This document shows positions 4,942 to 59,729 of a stretch of DNA of 64,000 nucleotides, piece after piece. Both the position numbers and the translations under genes were made by a program. Origin of the DNA: Candidatus Staskawiczbacteria bacterium (lineage in GTDB: Bacteria; Patescibacteriota; Minisyncoccia; Minisyncoccales; Staskawiczbacteraceae); assembly GCA_023245155.1 (NCBI GenBank), contig JAHFKV010000001.1, positions 267,034 through 331,033 on the forward strand, in the 5' to 3' direction. Position 1 is the first letter of the stretch. The number at the start of each line of letters is the position of its first letter. The notes below the pieces were generated by a model that saw nothing but the letters and a program-made list of their open reading frames with translations, did not search any database and had not been told where the DNA came from.

Positions 4942-4985
4942 GTTGCCGCCTAAACTTGTACAAGTTTAGGCGGCAACATCTTTTC
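4942..4985 (+). terminator. terminator-like perfect palindrome
   Basis: GTTGCCGCCTAAACTTGT pairs with ACAAGTTTAGGCGGCAAC (4942-4977), followed by ATCTTTTC. Confidence 0.65.
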
Positions 4986-11653: not shown

Positions 11654-11671
11654 CCGGGTTAAGCCCTTCAT

Positions 11672-11859
11672 TCTGGCCAGCATGACTATGGCGGCCAGAT
11701 CAAGGATTTAACATTTGACGAGTCGTTATAGGAAGTTACATTATTCGCGGAGTGAGGTTTAACAAGATTAACTTCGTTGTTAATACGTAAAACCGCGAGG
11801 GTTAAAATGCGTTAAAGCTCGCTTTGCGAGCTCCCAACGAATATCTCTGGGATGTAACT
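11672..11859 (+). other. structured non-coding spacer (nested helices) upstream of the S-layer-like gene
   Basis: Helices at 11672-78/11693-99, 11734-41/11852-59, 11745-50/11793-98, 11759-65/11777-83 and 11816-22/11826-32. Confidence 0.35.
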
Positions 11860-11923
11860 GATTATTGGTCGATGCGACGAGAAATATAGTCCAAAAAAAT
11901 TAAAGACACAAAAAAATAATAAA

Positions 11924-26169: not shown

Positions 26170-26870
26170 AATTTCCACTTGGGATCTTTTTCCCAAAGCT
26201 CATTTAAATACAAAAAATCTTTATAGGTGTCCATGCCGTACCAAAAGCCTTCGTGCTTGTATAAGGCAGCTTGCTTCATTGGGATAAGCAGTTTCAGCGG
26301 GTCTTCAATCATGTCTCCCGGCTTTAAGTAGTTGAAAAATTCTTTGTTGAGCACCATGAAACCTCCGTTCACGTAGTCATAGAGCATAGGCTTTTGGGCA
26401 AATTCGGTAATGAGATTATCTTTGTCGGTATTTACCAATCCCCAGCGGGATTCCGGGTGCACCCCGGTGATGGTGGCAATTTTTCCGTGGCTTTTATGGA
26501 AGGCCACCAGCTTGGCAATATCAATGTCAGCCACCCCGTCTCCATAGGTGACCATGAACATATCTTCGGTAATGTGGGGCTTCATTTTTAACACCCGTTC
26601 GCCGTGGGGGGTTTCTAGGCCCGTGTCAATCGGCGTAACGGCAAATCCATGGTTGTTTTTGGAAAAATAGTCTTGAATCACTTCTCCCCTAAAGCCCAGA
26701 GCCGGCAGAAAGTGGTTATAGCCGTAGTGGTGATAAATTTTCATGATATGCCAAAGCATCGGCTTGCCGCCAATTTCCACCATCGGTTTGGGCTTGAATT
26801 CAGTTTCTTCTTTTAAGCGGGTGCCCGTACCTCCGCACAAGATAATCGTTTTGATTTTAGGGGAATCCAT
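26157..26870 (-). CDS. rfbF: glucose-1-phosphate cytidylyltransferase
   Basis: KTIILCGGTGTRLKEETEFKPKPMVEIGGKPMLWHIMKIY, typical of RfbF/DdhA. Confidence 0.9.
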   Translation of the reverse strand: MDSPKIKTIILCGGTGTRLKEETEFKPKPMVEIGGKPMLWHIMKIYHHYGYNHFLPALGFRGEVIQDYFSKNNHGFAVTPIDTGLETPHGERVLKMKPHITEDMFMVTYGDGVADIDIAKLVAFHKSHGKIATITGVHPESRWGLVNTDKDNLITEFAQKPMLYDYVNGGFMVLNKEFFNYLKPGDMIEDPLKLLIPMKQAALYKHEGFWYGMDTYKDFLYLNELWEKDPKWKLWKD

Positions 26871-26896
26871 AGTATAATAATATATTATAAAATAGC

Positions 26897-27904
26897 ATGG
26901 AAAAGGTAAAAAGACAACCTAAAATCAGCGTGATGCTGCTCACCTATAATCGAGATAAGCTGCTGCCCCGCGCCATTAAAAGCGCGTTAAACCAGACTTT
27001 CGGAAATTTTGAATTGGTGATTGTTAATAATGCCGCCACCGATACCACTGAGGCCGTGATCCAATCTTTTTTGGGAGACCCGCGGATTGTCTATAGAAAG
27101 CATGAAAAAAATACCGGCCCCTTCGGAGGATTGAATACCTGCTTAGATCTGGTAACCGGTGAATATGTGCTGAATTTGGCCGACGATGATGAACTGGTGC
27201 CAAATGCTTTGGAAACTATTTCTGACGCCATTGACCGGCTTTCGCCCCGGGGCATCCAGATTATCTATTTTGATTCTATTGACGCGGAAGTTCAGCAGTA
27301 CAGCGGTTCTGGTATTAAAAAAGAAGGGCCGGTAGCCTATGAGGATTATCTATGCAATCGTTTCAATGGCGACTACCAGGTGGTAATGGCCCGGTCAGTT
27401 ATTGGTAACAACCGTTTTGATCAAAATGCCTGGGGCGGTATGACCACCACCTATGGGTTGCGCTGTCACCGCGGAAATTTGGCCTATTATGTGCCAAAAA
27501 TCATTGCAAAATTATACCGATTGCACGGGGAAAGCCGGATTACCCGGGCTGAAACCACTCTGTATCACCATTTGCCAAAAATGTTGGGAACCCTGGAATC
27601 ATTTTTGGGAGAATTTGGCGAAGAAATTAAAAAAGCCTGCCCGGCTAATTATGGAGAGCGCTTAGCTTCTCTGGGGTTTTACCAAATCTTAAATGGCCGC
27701 TCCAAAGAAGGCCGAGTTCATTTGGCCACGGCTTTGAAATTCCGTTTTTCAGTTTTTCATGCCTTTGTTTATGTGGCTTCTTTTGCTTTAACTGCCCAGC
27801 AAATCAAATCCCTCTGCCTGATTTTTTTCAATATCCGCGAACGCTTGGTTAATCTTATTAAAAAATTCAAAAAACCAGTCGCCCTTACCAATGTCAGAGC
27901 ATAG
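26897..27904 (+). CDS. glycosyltransferase family 2
   Basis: ISVMLLTYNRDKLLPRAIKSALNQTFGNFELVIVNNAATD and ADDDE. Confidence 0.88.
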   Translation: MEKVKRQPKISVMLLTYNRDKLLPRAIKSALNQTFGNFELVIVNNAATDTTEAVIQSFLGDPRIVYRKHEKNTGPFGGLNTCLDLVTGEYVLNLADDDELVPNALETISDAIDRLSPRGIQIIYFDSIDAEVQQYSGSGIKKEGPVAYEDYLCNRFNGDYQVVMARSVIGNNRFDQNAWGGMTTTYGLRCHRGNLAYYVPKIIAKLYRLHGESRITRAETTLYHHLPKMLGTLESFLGEFGEEIKKACPANYGERLASLGFYQILNGRSKEGRVHLATALKFRFSVFHAFVYVASFALTAQQIKSLCLIFFNIRERLVNLIKKFKKPVALTNVRA

Positions 27905-54355: not shown

Positions 54356-54378
54356 CCCGCCTCACTGGCGGGTTTTTC
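54356..54378 (+). terminator. rho-independent terminator
   Basis: CCCGCC (54356-54361), loop TCACT, GGCGGG (54367-54372), followed by TTTTT. Confidence 0.8.
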
Positions 54379-54422
54379 ATTGCTAAAAAGGCCATTTTTA
54401 GGTAGAGTGAAGTATAAAATAT

Positions 54423-56879
54423 ATGTCTATCATTACTAAAATTTTCGGGGATCCGCATGAAAGGTTCGCTAAAAAGCTGCAGCCGGTGGTTGAAAAAATA
54501 AATGCTTTAGAGCCCGTCATGCAAGGCCTTACCGACACTGAGCTAAAAGAAAAAACAGTTGAATTTAAGCGGCGCCGCGCCGCAGGCGCGGCGCTTGATG
54601 AGCTGCTTCCCGAAGCTTTTGCGGCGGTGCGGGAAGCAGGAAAACGCAAGCTGAATCAGCGTCACTTTGACGTGCAATTAATCGGGGGCATGGCGCTTTG
54701 CCAAGGCAACATTGCCGAAATGCGCACCGGGGAAGGTAAAACCTTAACCGCCACCCTGGCGGTGTACTTGAATGCGTTAGAGAGTAAAGGCGTGCACGTG
54801 GTGACTGTGAATGACTACTTGGCTAAACGCGATATGGTGTGGATGGGGCAGATTTACGCAGCACTTGGCATGAGCACGGGGTGCATTACCGGCCAAGGCG
54901 GTTACGTGTATGATGCTGATTTTAAAAATGCGGACCAAGAAGACCTTGAACGCGATGCATTGGGCGGTTTTAAAGTGGTTGAAGATTTTCTTAAACCAGT
55001 TACAAAAAAAGAAGCTTACGCTGCTGACATTACTTATGGCACCAACCACGAATTCGGTTTTGATTATTTACGGGACAATATGGTCTATGATTTTGCCCAA
55101 CAAGTTCAGCGCGGCCATCATTTTTGTATTGTGGACGAAGTTGACTCAATTTTGATTGATGAAGCCCGCGTTCCTTTAATTATTTCCGGTCCGGCTGAAG
55201 ATGCTTCGGAAAAATACAAGCAGTTTACCAAGGTGATAGCTCCCTTGCAACAAGATGCCGATTACACCATTGATGAAAAATTAAAAACGGTCAGTTTCAC
55301 CGAAGAAGGGCAGGAAAAGGTGGTAAAACGCTTGGGCCAAGACCCATGGGGCGAAAATGACATCATCACCGCTCACCAATTAGAGTCAGCCTTGCGGGCC
55401 AAAACCCTGTTTTTGAAAGACCGCGATTACGTGGTAAAAAATAATGAAATTGTGATTATTGATGAGTTTACTGGCAGGATGCTGCAGGGGCGGCGTTGGA
55501 GCGCGGGTTTACACCAGGCCGTGGAAGCTAAAGAGGGCGTTAACATCCAGGCGGAATCGGTAACCATGGCCACCATTACGTTTCAAAATTATTTCCGGCT
55601 CTACCAAAAGATTTCCGGCATGACCGGCACCGCCTTAACTTCCGCCGAAGAGTTCGATAAGGTTTATAAATTGCAAGTGGTAGTGGTGCCAACTCACCGG
55701 CCCATCGCCCGCCAAGATTCACCGGATAAAGTCTATAAGACTGAAGCGGGAAAGTTACAATCGGTTGTTTCTCAAATTAAAACGTTGCATGCAAAGGGGC
55801 AGCCGGTGCTGGTAGGGACCCGGTCTGTGGAAAAAAACGAATATTTGGGAAAATTGCTAGAGGCCAGCGGTGTGCCATTCCAAATGTTAAATGCCAAAAA
55901 CCATGAACGGGAAGGGGAAATTATTGCTCAAGCGGGGAAACTGGGAGCAGTGACTATTGCTACCAACATGGCTGGCCGCGGCGTGGACATTATCCTTGGT
56001 GGGAACCCTAAGAATCCTGAGGAAGCTCGGGGGGTTACCGAATTGGGCGGCCTTTTCGTGCTGGGCACCGAACGTCATGATGCCCGCCGAATTGATAACC
56101 AGCTGCGCGGCCGGGCAGGTAGACAGGGGGATCCTGGTGCTTCGCAATTTTTTGTTTCCCTAGATGATGATTTAATGCGCATTTTCGGGGGCGACAGGAT
56201 TAAGTCAATGATGAACACGTTGAACGTGCCTGAAGACGAGCCCATAGAATCTAGAATGATTTCTTCAGCCTTGGAATCTGCCCAGGGGAAAATTGAAGGG
56301 TTTAACTTTGACGCCCGGAACCATTTGCTTGAATATGACGACGTGATGAACAGGCATCGGGAAATCATGTATAAAAAACGGCAGGAGATTCTTGAGACTA
56401 ACCAAGATACAAAATACAACAACCAAATTTTTGATGCCAAGAAGAAGGAGTTGGGCGAAGAAAATTTCAGTCAGCTGGCTCGGGTGGTGAGTTTGCGGGT
56501 GATTGACCAACTTTGGCAAGAACATTTAAGCAACATGGAACACATGCGGGATTCAGTGAAACTGCGCGCTTACGGCGGTCAGGATCCGTTGGTTGAGTAT
56601 AAGAACGAAGGCCACCGATTATTCGCGGGGTTGTTGGAAGAAATTGATGCGACCATTGCTAATAATCTGTTGAAGGCCAATATACAGGTCCAATCGCAGG
56701 TTAGCCAGGTGCCAAATTTTGTCCAAAATTTGGCACAGTCGGGCGCCCCGATGTCCATCGGAGCGCATGAAAAAGAAATTGGCCGTAATGATCTTTGTAA
56801 TTGCGGTAGTGGCAAAAAGTTCAAAAAGTGCGGGGCGTTAAATTCAGTTGAGCATCAGCAACTAATGACTAAAAAATAA
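54423..56879 (+). CDS. secA: preprotein translocase ATPase SecA
   Basis: 818 aa. MRTGEGKTL Walker A, DEVDSILIDEARVPLIISG, C-terminal zinc motif CNCGSGKKFKKCG. Confidence 0.97.
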   Translation: MSIITKIFGDPHERFAKKLQPVVEKINALEPVMQGLTDTELKEKTVEFKRRRAAGAALDELLPEAFAAVREAGKRKLNQRHFDVQLIGGMALCQGNIAEMRTGEGKTLTATLAVYLNALESKGVHVVTVNDYLAKRDMVWMGQIYAALGMSTGCITGQGGYVYDADFKNADQEDLERDALGGFKVVEDFLKPVTKKEAYAADITYGTNHEFGFDYLRDNMVYDFAQQVQRGHHFCIVDEVDSILIDEARVPLIISGPAEDASEKYKQFTKVIAPLQQDADYTIDEKLKTVSFTEEGQEKVVKRLGQDPWGENDIITAHQLESALRAKTLFLKDRDYVVKNNEIVIIDEFTGRMLQGRRWSAGLHQAVEAKEGVNIQAESVTMATITFQNYFRLYQKISGMTGTALTSAEEFDKVYKLQVVVVPTHRPIARQDSPDKVYKTEAGKLQSVVSQIKTLHAKGQPVLVGTRSVEKNEYLGKLLEASGVPFQMLNAKNHEREGEIIAQAGKLGAVTIATNMAGRGVDIILGGNPKNPEEARGVTELGGLFVLGTERHDARRIDNQLRGRAGRQGDPGASQFFVSLDDDLMRIFGGDRIKSMMNTLNVPEDEPIESRMISSALESAQGKIEGFNFDARNHLLEYDDVMNRHREIMYKKRQEILETNQDTKYNNQIFDAKKKELGEENFSQLARVVSLRVIDQLWQEHLSNMEHMRDSVKLRAYGGQDPLVEYKNEGHRLFAGLLEEIDATIANNLLKANIQVQSQVSQVPNFVQNLAQSGAPMSIGAHEKEIGRNDLCNCGSGKKFKKCGALNSVEHQQLMTKK

Positions 56880-56881
56880 AG

Positions 56882-57151
56882 ATGGAGAATAGAGAAGAAA
56901 TAAAAATGAAACTTCAGAAAGGTGGGTATCTGACTATACATGAGTATAATGATTTGCCGAATGAAGAATTTCCAGATCATACGCACGACACAGAAGAATT
57001 GGCAGTTATTGTAAGTGGAAGTCTTAACGTTAAAATGGATGGCCTCAATTATTTACTGAAAGCGGGAAATGAGTTTGTGTTCCCTGCAAAAAGAGTACAC
57101 AGCGCGAAAGTGGGGCCAGGGGGCTGTGTGTACATCGTTGGTGAAAAATAA
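56882..57151 (+). CDS. small cupin-domain protein
   Basis: 89 aa. PDHTHDTEE...RVHSAKVG metal-site pattern. Confidence 0.75.
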   Translation: MENREEIKMKLQKGGYLTIHEYNDLPNEEFPDHTHDTEELAVIVSGSLNVKMDGLNYLLKAGNEFVFPAKRVHSAKVGPGGCVYIVGEK

Positions 57152-57155
57152 AATT

Positions 57156-57662
57156 ATGAGCAAAGAAATTCTACCAGTCAAACCATTTCAAGAAACACTG
57201 CACAAAAGCATGTGTGGTCCGGCAAGTCTGAAAATGGTTTTGGATTACTATGGCGTTGAAAAATCAGAAGAGGATTTGGCGGCGCTTTGTAAAACCACTG
57301 ATGAGTTGGGAACCGATGATATTGGTATCCAGCAAGCCGCGCAAAGTTTGGGATTTATAGCAGAAATAAAAAATAATAGCACCTTTGAAGATATTCAAAC
57401 CTGGCTGAATAAAAAAGTTCCGGTAATTGTCAATTGGATTACGACAGGCAGAAAAGATTATAGCGAATCGGAAGTTGCTGATGGGCATTATTCAGTGGTG
57501 GTTGGGCTGGATGATGAACTAATTTACCTGCAAGACCCAGAAATTGGAAAGGTAAGAGAAATTGCGAGAGGTGATTTCATGAAAGTCTGGTACGATTTTA
57601 CGGGGAAAGTCATAAAACCGGAGGAGTTAATTATCAGGCAGATTATTGCAATATATAAATAA
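57156..57662 (+). CDS. standalone C39-like (papain-fold) cysteine peptidase domain protein
   Basis: Q...CGPASLKMVLDYYG and DGHYSVVVG (Cys/His dyad). Confidence 0.75.
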   Translation: MSKEILPVKPFQETLHKSMCGPASLKMVLDYYGVEKSEEDLAALCKTTDELGTDDIGIQQAAQSLGFIAEIKNNSTFEDIQTWLNKKVPVIVNWITTGRKDYSESEVADGHYSVVVGLDDELIYLQDPEIGKVREIARGDFMKVWYDFTGKVIKPEELIIRQIIAIYK

Positions 57663-57925
57663 TGGAAAATAAAATTGAGGATTTAAAGAAATTGGGATAC
57701 TCTCCGGTTTGGGTTTATAGTGCCATGCCCAACGAAGATGACCCTGATCATGCGCACCAGTACGACACTCATTTATTTATTTTGGAAGGCGAAATTTCAA
57801 TTAAAATGAATGGGAAAGTTGTGATTTTAAAACCTGGCGATAAAATAGATATTCCCCGTGAAAAAGTGCATGCCGGCAAAGCTGGTGCGGCGGGATGCAA
57901 ATATATTGTGGCTGAAAAACATTAA
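57662..57925 (+). CDS. small cupin-domain protein (paralog of 56882..57151)
   Basis: 87 aa. PDHAHQYDTH...KVHAGKAG. Collinear with the first cupin. Confidence 0.75.
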   Translation: MENKIEDLKKLGYSPVWVYSAMPNEDDPDHAHQYDTHLFILEGEISIKMNGKVVILKPGDKIDIPREKVHAGKAGAAGCKYIVAEKH

Positions 57926-57944
57926 TGTATGGAAAATAAACCTA

Positions 57945-58100
57945 AAGAAAAAGCCACAGGGTAGTGTCGGGCTTTGTGTACAAGGAAGTTGTGCTTCCCC
58001 CGACCCCTGTGGCAGCCTTGAGGCTTCCTCCAATGAGCTTTCTTGCCGGTTAGGCAAGATTGGAGGTTTGGGCGTGGGAACACGGCTACATCCCCGCCTT
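57945..58100 (-). ncRNA. candidate ~155-nt sRNA, antisense orientation relative to all flanking genes
   Basis: Minus-strand extended -10 promoter directly upstream. Three G+C-rich hairpins. The last (58013-57953) is followed by U5CUUU. No plausible ORF. Confidence 0.55.
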
Positions 58101-58106
58101 ATGATA

Positions 58107-58134
58107 ATTGTAACAAAGCTCGAAAAATAGTCAA
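58107..58134 (-). promoter_or_regulatory. promoter TTGACT-N16-TGtTACAAT (minus strand)
   Basis: The reverse complement of 58107-58134 reads TTGACTATTTTTCGAGCTTTGTTACAAT. Confidence 0.6.
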
Positions 58135-58140
58135 ACGTTT

Positions 58141-58581
58141 ATGGAAGATATTAAGCAATTAATAAAAGAAGTTTTAGAAAAAGGATATTTGATGTCACTG
58201 GCAACAGTGGACGATGGGGGAGTTTGGGTAAGTGATGTTATTTTTGTGCACGACGATGATTTGAATATGTATTGGATGTCAAAATTACACCGCCGGCATT
58301 CTTTGGCAATTTTGAAAAATAACAAAGTAGCGGCGACAATTACGGTTACCCTTGGACCCAAAGAAGATGAATTAGGAATTCAACTTGAGGGCATTGCAGA
58401 AAAAATTGAAGGCGCAAGATATGATTTGGCAAAAAAACATTTTGTAAAGCGTCTTAATCCTGAACCAAAAGAAACTGATGATGTGCTGGATGGCGGCTCG
58501 TGGTATGTGTTAAAACCTGCTAAAATAGAGTTGATCCATAAAAAGTTGTTTGGATTCAACAAACAAACGTTAACTTTTTAA
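58141..58581 (+). CDS. pyridoxamine 5'-phosphate oxidase-family (FMN-binding split-barrel) protein
   Basis: YLMSLATVDDGGVWVSDVIFVHDDDLNMYWMS pattern; 146 aa. Confidence 0.75.
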   Translation: MEDIKQLIKEVLEKGYLMSLATVDDGGVWVSDVIFVHDDDLNMYWMSKLHRRHSLAILKNNKVAATITVTLGPKEDELGIQLEGIAEKIEGARYDLAKKHFVKRLNPEPKETDDVLDGGSWYVLKPAKIELIHKKLFGFNKQTLTF

Positions 58582-58585
58582 ACCC

Positions 58586-59461
58586 ATGAACAAGAAAATT
58601 TTGGTTATTATTGTCTTAGTAATTCTGGTTGCTGGCGGTGGTTGGTATTTTAAAGACAGCCTTTTGAGTTTGTACCATAGTACTGCCAATAATCTGCAGA
58701 GTTTCCAAAAAGGTGATTTGGGCAATGTGCTCAACGAAGTGAAAAGAGAAATTCTGACTTCAAAGCCTTTAAATGTGGGTGGCAAAGAGAACGATGTTGT
58801 ATTAACAAAAGTTAAGGTAATCGCAGAGACTAATTTCCAACGTTACGATAATGGCCAATTGCCGCCACTCATAGAAAATGCAAAGTTGGACGCGGCCGCC
58901 CTGGCAAAAGCCAAAGATCTATTTGCCAAGCAATATTTTGAGCATGTTTCACCCAGCGGCGTTGATCCGGGAACGTTGGTCAAAAAATACGGCTATGAGT
59001 ATATTGTGTCCGGGGAAAATTTGATTCTGGGAAATTTTACCGATGAAAAAGAAGTAGTGCAGGATTGGATGAATAGCCCCGGCCACCGGGCCAATATTTT
59101 AAATACGCGTTTTGCAGACATTGGAGTTGCCATGGTAAAAGGCACGTATGAGGGGCGCACGGTATGGATTGGCGTCCAGGAGTTTGGCTTGCCACTAAGT
59201 GCGTGCCCGGCTCCGTCTAGCACGCTAAAAAACGAAATTGATGCCGGTAAAGCCCAACTGGACCAAATGGCCGCTCAATTGGACGCCAAAAAACAGCAGA
59301 TAGAAAATACCGATAGAAGTTCTCCGGAATATAATCAGTTGGTGGGTGAATATAACGCCATGGCTGACCAATATAACACCCGGGCGCAAGAAATTAAAAA
59401 CTTGATTACAGAGTACAACAAGCAAATTAATACCTTTAACGCGTGCGTGGCAGGCAAATAA
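58586..59461 (+). CDS. membrane-anchored CAP/SCP (YkwD-like) domain protein with C-terminal coiled coil
   Basis: N-terminal TM segment. FEHVSPSG...GENLILGNF...WMNSPGHRANIL...IGVAM. Confidence 0.8.
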   Translation: MNKKILVIIVLVILVAGGGWYFKDSLLSLYHSTANNLQSFQKGDLGNVLNEVKREILTSKPLNVGGKENDVVLTKVKVIAETNFQRYDNGQLPPLIENAKLDAAALAKAKDLFAKQYFEHVSPSGVDPGTLVKKYGYEYIVSGENLILGNFTDEKEVVQDWMNSPGHRANILNTRFADIGVAMVKGTYEGRTVWIGVQEFGLPLSACPAPSSTLKNEIDAGKAQLDQMAAQLDAKKQQIENTDRSSPEYNQLVGEYNAMADQYNTRAQEIKNLITEYNKQINTFNACVAGK

Positions 59462-59462
59462 T

Positions 59463-59729
59463 ATGGCAATAATTAAGAAAAAAACGTGGCCGGAATATTT
59501 TGATTTAATAGCTTCCGGAAAAAAGAAGTTTGACGTGCGCCTTAATGATTTTGACTTACAAGAAGGCGATGTATTGGTGTTTGAGGAATGGGATCCAAAA
59601 ATAAAAAAATATACCGCCAGAAAAGTTGAGAAAAAAGTAACGTACGTTCTGCCATGTAAAATGGACCAGCTATTTTGGCCGGAAGAAGAAATCAAAGAAA
59701 AGGGTTTAAAGATTATTTCCCTGGAATAA
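59463..59729 (+). CDS. DUF3850/ASCH-like (PUA-fold) small protein
   Basis: KTWPEYFDLIASGKKKFDVRLNDFDLQEGDVLVFEEWD. Confidence 0.7.
   Translation: MAIIKKKTWPEYFDLIASGKKKFDVRLNDFDLQEGDVLVFEEWDPKIKKYTARKVEKKVTYVLPCKMDQLFWPEEEIKEKGLKIISLE

Follow-up and report, generated by a model that had tools for sequence, protein, structure and literature searches.

The window analysed here is a 64-kb stretch of DNA, and the locus of interest lies in a compact plus-strand operon with the order secA-cupin-C39-cupin-PNPOx-CAP-ASCH. SecA (54423-56879) is followed by an 89-aa cupin, a C39-like peptidase (57156-57662), an 87-aa cupin (57662-57925), a PNPOx/YhbP-like protein (58141-58581), a CAP-domain protein and, last, an ASCH/DUF3850 protein. 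Spacers within the operon range from -1 to 8 nt (2, 4, -1, 4 and 1 among them), with the sole exception of a 215-nt gap between the second cupin gene and the PNPOx gene. This gap holds a G+C-rich module of about 200 bases, which is the most structured intergenic stretch of the window (z about -5 to -6). The first-pass annotation had placed a minus-strand element in this spacer, among neighbouring genes that are all on the plus strand and far poorer in G+C, and the arrangement is as it described: the G+C content of the module is 0.57-0.60 versus 0.25-0.45 in the flanks and 0.44 on average for the window, the same value being given for the genome.

On the minus strand, the module begins with a predicted promoter composed of a -35 hexamer TTGACT (58129-58134, 5/6 match to consensus), a 16-nt spacer and an extended -10 element TGtTACAAT (58107-58115; TG at 58115-58114, TACAAT at 58112-58107). 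The earlier reading of 58134-58107 as TTGACT-N16-TGtTACAAT is correct base by base. With a score of 10/12 plus TG, it outranks every other promoter-like site in the local scan, where no other site carries TG. Throughout the window (both strands, 128,000 strand positions) 18 sites score at least 10/12, and 5 of the 18, the module promoter among them, also have TG. The chance of finding such a site within the right 30 nt of the right strand is about 0.001. Most high-scoring plus-strand sites of the TTGACA/TATAAT type sit just upstream of genes; hence, the organism uses promoters of the type found in the module. Judged from spacing (7-9 nt past the -10 element), transcription is predicted to start at A58100, A58099 or G58098, that is, at the foot of the first hairpin of the RNA.

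Both the MFE and the centroid structures of the predicted RNA consist of three independent hairpins with free ends. P1, the 5'-terminal hairpin (58071-58098, -12.2 kcal/mol), is formed by GGCGGGG/CCCACGCC, paired as GGCGGGG(A)...(U)CCC-A-CGCC around the 11-nt loop UGUAGCCGUGU. P2 (58027-58066, -18.4 kcal/mol) is a perfect 14-bp (8+6) helix in which CCUCCAAUCUUGCC faces GGCAAG-(AAAGCUC bulge)-AUUGGAGG across the loop UAACC; its outer part pairs CCUCCAAU with AUUGGAGG (58066-58059 with 58034-58027) and its inner part reads CUUGCC-UAACC-GGCAAG (58058-58042). A 4-bp mini-hairpin, AGCC-UCAA-GGCU (58014-58025, -3.7 kcal/mol), is an addition to the first-pass description. P3 (57953-58013, -30.8 kcal/mol) is an interrupted terminal hairpin of 61 nt. 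Its G+C-rich basal stem of 9 bp (GCCACAGGG/CCCUGUGGC) is continued by GUCGGG/CCCGAC and then by GGAAG/CUUCC, and its 12-nt 3' internal loop, UUGUACACAAAG, contains the palindrome UGUACA. Directly 3' of P3 lies the U-run UUUUUCUUU (U5CU3, 57944-57952), the tail of a putative intrinsic terminator. Every coordinate and motif previously given for the three G+C-rich hairpins and the U-run after them was reproduced.

Canonical hairpin-plus-U terminators follow plus-strand genes of this organism at 2673-2712, 4942-4985 and 54356-54380, and the module terminator is of this kind. P3 is unusually long and interrupted; it was omitted by the consensus terminator scan, the limit of which its loop exceeds. 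Between hpf (S30AE) and secA, the hairpin CCCGCCTCACTGGCGGG at 54356-54380 is preceded by an A-run and followed by a T-run; it is possibly a bidirectional terminator, and the consensus scan gave it on the minus strand only. Taken as a whole, the module displays the generic marks of a stand-alone sRNA gene, a sigma-70-type promoter of its own and an intrinsic terminator at the 3' end. The proposal that the promoter, a 5' hairpin at the predicted start and the terminator make up a self-contained minus-strand unit is upheld, and the combination is statistically unusual.

The minus-strand RNA (162 nt) folds with an MFE of -70.5 kcal/mol (z -5.2), a value equalled by none of 200 dinucleotide shuffles. 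For the spacer that carries the module z is about -6, the most extreme among all intergenic regions of the window. Another structured intergenic region, 11654-11923, has z of about -4.6 on both strands and no Rfam match; it is located downstream of an ECF sigma factor gene and upstream of a 1125-aa ORF without a Pfam domain. The plus strand of the module also folds (-72 kcal/mol, z -3.9), since all stems are pure Watson-Crick, and structure alone therefore cannot fix the polarity. The first-pass annotation had taken the polarity as settled by the terminal hairpin: a U-run does follow P3 on the minus strand only, but the structure itself leaves the strand undefined. The promoter, the start position, the U-run and the loop composition favour the minus strand. 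Unpaired residues of the minus-strand RNA comprise 25 A, 13 C, 11 U and 7 G (n = 56). A-rich loops are usual for functional structured RNAs, and loops that are A-rich on the minus strand are U-rich on the plus strand, in support of the minus strand.

The module has sharply defined borders. An 11-nt direct repeat with 10 of 11 positions identical brackets exactly the promoter, the RNA and the terminator. The left copy, TATGGAAAATA (57928-57938), lies 3 nt past the cupin stop codon, and the right copy, TATGGAAGATA (58140-58150), includes the PNPOx start codon (58141). The interval between the copies (57939-58139, 201 bp) consists of the minus-strand promoter, RNA and terminator and nothing else. 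When the module and one repeat copy are deleted in silico, the junction becomes TAA-TGT-ATG, with a 3-nt spacer as elsewhere in the operon; the reconstructed empty junction reads ...CATTAATGTATGGAAGATATTAAGC.... A repeat this good is found at 0.7% of positions when the same geometry is slid along the window and at 3% where both zones are A+T-rich. It could thus be a matter of chance (p about 0.01-0.03, for a repeat found post hoc), and as evidence of insertion its statistics are suggestive and no proof. Because a direct repeat brackets the unit and its removal restores an operon-like 3-nt junction, the 201-bp module is probably an insertion at the cupin-PNPOx junction. The flanking repeat and the evidence for insertion are new relative to the first-pass annotation. 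We found no terminal inverted repeats joining the ends of 57939-58139 and no second copy of the module within the 64-kb window; a classical MITE is a poor match for it.

We compared the module with known RNA families. An Rfam 15 scan of the whole window at gathering thresholds gave no matches, and scans with lax filters (E <= 10; 701 nt and 166 nt) returned only noise, the best scores being 17.1 bits for mir-635 and 14.7 bits for the KDPG-aldolase motif. ARAGORN detected no tRNA or tmRNA genes anywhere in the window. For bacterial SRP RNA (4.5S), neither RF00169 nor RF01854 matched at E <= 10, and inspection of both strands did not reveal an SRP helix 8 with its GNRA tetraloop and conserved loops. 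For 6S RNA, there was no RF00013 match at E <= 10 and no 5'/3' closing stem around a central bubble. On the plus strand, we found no Rfam aptamer and no U-run after any hairpin of the kind expected of a riboswitch or leader. These searches agree with the earlier failure to match the element to SRP, 6S, tmRNA, RNase P or a riboswitch. The KDPG-aldolase RNA motif (RF03115, plus strand) was rejected: it scores 14.7 bits against a gathering threshold of 54.6 (E 1.4) and its helices are mismatched. The plus strand does share with it GUCGG, CCCUGUGGCAG and a hairpin UGCC-UUAGGCA followed by UGGAG, but four pairs in the outer helix of the model would be non-canonical, and the common 11-mer is unpaired in the model while it forms a stem in the module.

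A public assembly annotates an 86-aa hypothetical protein on the plus strand across the RNA region (57870-58130). This overlapping ORF has no Pfam match at E <= 1. A concatenated six-frame translation matched nothing among 5.8 billion proteins, the ORF itself included, in a search that its query design may have defeated. The G+C content of the ORF is flat over the three codon positions (0.54/0.47/0.46 versus 0.5/0.3/0.35 in neighbouring genes). The annotated protein is almost certainly a spurious call, and the statement that the region has no credible ORF holds: Pfam match, homologue and codon-position G+C pattern are all missing.

To find relatives of the module we used the homologue lists of PNPOx and C39 for a synteny comparison, with 10 look-ups of loci from non-identical relatives. 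Names among these homologues include Candidatus Staskawicz-, Yanofsky-, Giovannoni-, Colwell- and Moraniibacteria, which puts the window in a CPR bacterium of the Parcubacteria type. The PNPOx and C39 protein clusters are single-member, the next relatives are 78-84% identical, and no close strain variants are on record. The SecA-PNPOx-CAP order recurs in related Parcubacteria (54423-59729 in the window; loci L002, L005, L008 and L028), and the slot between SecA and PNPOx is variable: it is empty or holds NUDIX or DUF6624 in relatives and holds cupin-C39-cupin plus the RNA module here. In L002, L005 and L008, PNPOx lies downstream of SecA, either adjacent to it or separated from it by other small genes, and there is no such RNA element. 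The neighbourhood of the C39 gene differs in every relative looked up, and gene order around PNPOx and C39 is fluid; small genes (PNPOx, NUDIX, C39, ASCH) are reshuffled from genome to genome. Neither the RNA module nor the cupin-PNPOx junction is present in any of the relatives looked up, and an empty site was not recovered among them.

Searches of the relatives' loci with nhmmer and with a covariance model of the RNA (R1; about 134 kb including the window) returned only the module itself and an identical copy from a second sample. In GTDB genomes, a loop1+loop2 pattern gave 13 matches, close to the random number estimated beforehand; they fall in unrelated phyla, none in CPR, and none resembles the RNA. 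Patterns for P3 and P2 with purine/pyrimidine-degenerate stems had no matches in either of two scans of JGI metagenomes, none of three blocks matched in IMG/VR, and blastn against phages and plasmids was likewise empty. The element had been called an orphan, and it remains one in the relatives' loci, GTDB, JGI metagenomes, IMG/VR, phages and plasmids, with the reservation that the pattern scans demand exact matches, are insensitive and could have missed distant homologues. Since no homologue was found, no covariation test is possible. A 9-mer, GGGAUGUAG, common to the module and the intergenic region after C39 in L009 was dismissed as a chance match, the L009 region being not significantly structured and having no further similarity; E. 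coli 4.5S RNA has the same 10-mer, which we take to be likewise coincidental. In the closest relative (P0122, C39 84% identical; a 1284-nt contig from the same sample, ENA ERZ27296333), C39 is followed by an 87-aa gene, and the contig stops at the very point at which the RNA module would start. Speculatively, a repeat or an insertion site that varies between strains may lie behind this break.

The first-pass annotation proposed that the RNA exposes both CCUCC and GGAGG and could act on ribosome-binding sites. Neither part is borne out. CCUCC and GGAGG are base-paired to one another in the perfect 14-bp helix of P2, and an SD-like motif is present in just 2 of the 58 start regions of the window. 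In a published survey, the anti-SD motif was detected in only 48% of Parcubacteria (PMC9297842), which leaves about half without it. The idea of action on ribosome-binding sites therefore fails, as the genes lack SD motifs and CCUCC is paired with GGAGG. In many genes of the window a TATAAT-like box is located 5-25 nt before the ATG (e.g. 54395-54425 and 26870-26897), which suggests short-leader or leaderless mRNAs in this organism. A 33-codon plus-strand ORF at 2752-2853, MKCSLHKGGEHTREGGEHRRQGGEHLRQGGEHR, with four 21-nt repeats (GGEHxRx), has AGGAGA in front of it, in contrast to the near absence of SD motifs at other genes. The intergenic region that contains it follows a Trp-repressor-like gene and is G+C-rich and structured (z about -4.8); the predicted product of the ORF could be a His-rich metal-binding or leader peptide. 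As for trans targets of the module RNA within the window, the longest complementarity elsewhere is 12 nt, which is at chance level.

We therefore weighed several explanations for the module. An element of the plus-strand secA-to-PNPOx mRNA, serving as a PNPOx leader (riboswitch, thermometer, processing site or stabiliser), would suit a locus where all neighbouring genes are on the plus strand and where this strand, too, folds stably. In one version, GGAGG (58062-58066) is sequestered by CCUCC and is followed by a 19-codon upstream ORF (GTG 58074 to TAG 58130), with 10 nt separating its end from the PNPOx ATG; the sequence does contain GGAGG at a distance of 7 nt from GTG, and the best sub-threshold Rfam alignment (RF03115, with CCCUGUGGCAG and UGCC..GGCA..UGGAG) is on the plus strand. 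However, that alignment is far under its gathering threshold and its helices do not fit. With SD-like motifs nearly absent from the window and many Parcubacteria without an anti-SD, the sequestration would control nothing, and this version was dropped for want of SD usage in the genome. Moreover, the plus strand has neither a terminator nor an antiterminator, the loops would be U-rich, the PNPOx homologues of relatives have no such leader, and the promoter and U-run of the opposite strand would be left unexplained. We consider a plus-strand element rather unlikely. A small protein is far less credible. The 86-90-aa plus-strand ORF (57858/57870-58130) is uninterrupted and was predicted by a gene finder, and its translation contains ...NELSCRLGKIGG..., so that a Cys-containing GG-motif peptide processed by the nearby C39-type peptidase might be envisaged. 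Against this stand the negative Pfam and protein searches (the latter with the reservation on query design given above), the flat codon-position G+C and an overlap of about 60 nt with the cupin gene. The consensus of double-glycine leaders is LSxxELxxIxGG, and the leader spacing in the ORF does not fit. C39 itself is a conserved Parcubacteria gene whose neighbourhood is different in every relative. Taken together, these points make the peptide highly improbable.

A very divergent housekeeping RNA (SRP/4.5S, 6S, RNase P or tmRNA) missed by the Rfam models in CPR is just as implausible. Genes of this sort typically stand out as G+C-rich islands with strong promoters where the genome is A+T-rich. 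RNAs of CPR bacteria may also be atypical (PMC9297842). Yet even lax filters gave no match at E <= 10 and ARAGORN was empty, the fold consists of three independent hairpins rather than a 5'/3'-closed rod and lacks a GNRA-capped helix-8 motif, and no relative was found where conservation is expected. The module might instead be what is left of a foreign or mobile insert (MITE-like or palindromic) that does nothing for the host, its transcription signals being fortuitous or left over from the donor. The flanking repeat with the restored 3-nt junction, the high G+C content in a 0.44 genome, the lack of conservation in any relative examined and, speculatively, the contig of the closest relative, which is cut off right where the cupin gene ends, are what such a remnant would predict. 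On the other hand, the module lacks terminal inverted repeats, is present once in 64 kb and had no match, with the patterns used, in phages, plasmids, IMG/VR, JGI metagenomes or GTDB genomes; a near-consensus extended -10 element, a U-run and a start located at a hairpin foot are also unlikely to coincide by accident. We regard an inert insert as a minority possibility. Improbable, though of a different kind, is the idea that the 201-bp unit is a non-autonomous mobile "sRNA cassette" without inverted repeats that inserts with an 11-bp target duplication, lands antisense in operons of CPR hosts and rewires their expression.

The reading we favour, with about even confidence, is that of a candidate lineage-specific, independently transcribed minus-strand sRNA of about 155 nt that would have been acquired as a block. 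According to it, a G+C-rich module of 201 bp was inserted between the stop codon of the cupin gene and the start codon of PNPOx, and an RNA would be made from its minus-strand promoter, starting near 58100-58098 and ending near 57945. Action in cis is suggested because this RNA is perfectly complementary to the sole long spacer of the operon. The cupin-PNPOx interval contains no plus-strand terminator and no good plus-strand promoter before PNPOx; therefore, sense RNA should cross the region. Two routes to an effect can be envisaged. A polymerase leaving the strong promoter, 7-34 nt before the PNPOx ATG, would meet read-through polymerases coming from secA head-on. Alternatively, the RNA could anneal to the read-through mRNA over about 155 bp, giving a duplex that RNase III would cleave. 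Either route would lower the expression of PNPOx-CAP-ASCH or uncouple it from that of the upstream genes. The RNA might also act in trans or bind a protein, but nothing here supports this.

CPR/Patescibacteria have tiny genomes and few regulators, and to our knowledge almost nothing is known of their regulatory RNAs. If the transcript is real, the locus would be a clean case of an antisense RNA gene that interrupts an otherwise gap-free operon, and it would illustrate the acquisition of such a unit in one piece. Should the improbable mobile cassette prove true, it would represent a previously undescribed type of small mobile element, and Parcubacteria would have their first reported regulatory RNA of this sort. 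Unless further copies or signs of expression come to light, the wider importance is limited, as the element occurs in a single population and homologues are lacking.

Among known systems, RsaE/RoxS and RNAIII of Gram-positives are trans-acting sRNAs that block Shine-Dalgarno sites with C-rich motifs. The module RNA likewise has CCUCC and ends in a predicted intrinsic terminator; however, its CCUCC is locked in a 14-bp helix with GGAGG and not displayed in an exposed loop, the genes of the host have no SD motifs, and trans complementarity in the window does not rise above chance. Neisseria Correia elements and other MITEs are small promoter-carrying insertions with target duplications. The module resembles them in size (about 200 bp), high degree of structure, short flanking direct repeat, location at a gene junction and delivery of transcription signals, but differs in having no terminal inverted repeats, in being single-copy in 64 kb and in having no relatives in the collections searched. 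The third comparison is with E. coli GadY (Rfam RF00122), a cis-encoded antisense sRNA located opposite the spacer between gadX and gadW. The two are not similar in sequence or structure (no Rfam match), the host here is an uncultured Parcubacteria-type organism, and without the RNA module there would be no spacer. What they have in common, for the module as predicted from its sequence, is a small RNA (100-150 nt) that has a promoter and an intrinsic terminator to itself, encoded opposite the spacer of co-transcribed genes and fully complementary to a polycistronic mRNA, so that duplex formation and RNase III processing would be expected. Overall, the candidate is in kind an ordinary promoter-to-terminator sRNA, and its most interesting part is the insertion signature in a CPR operon.
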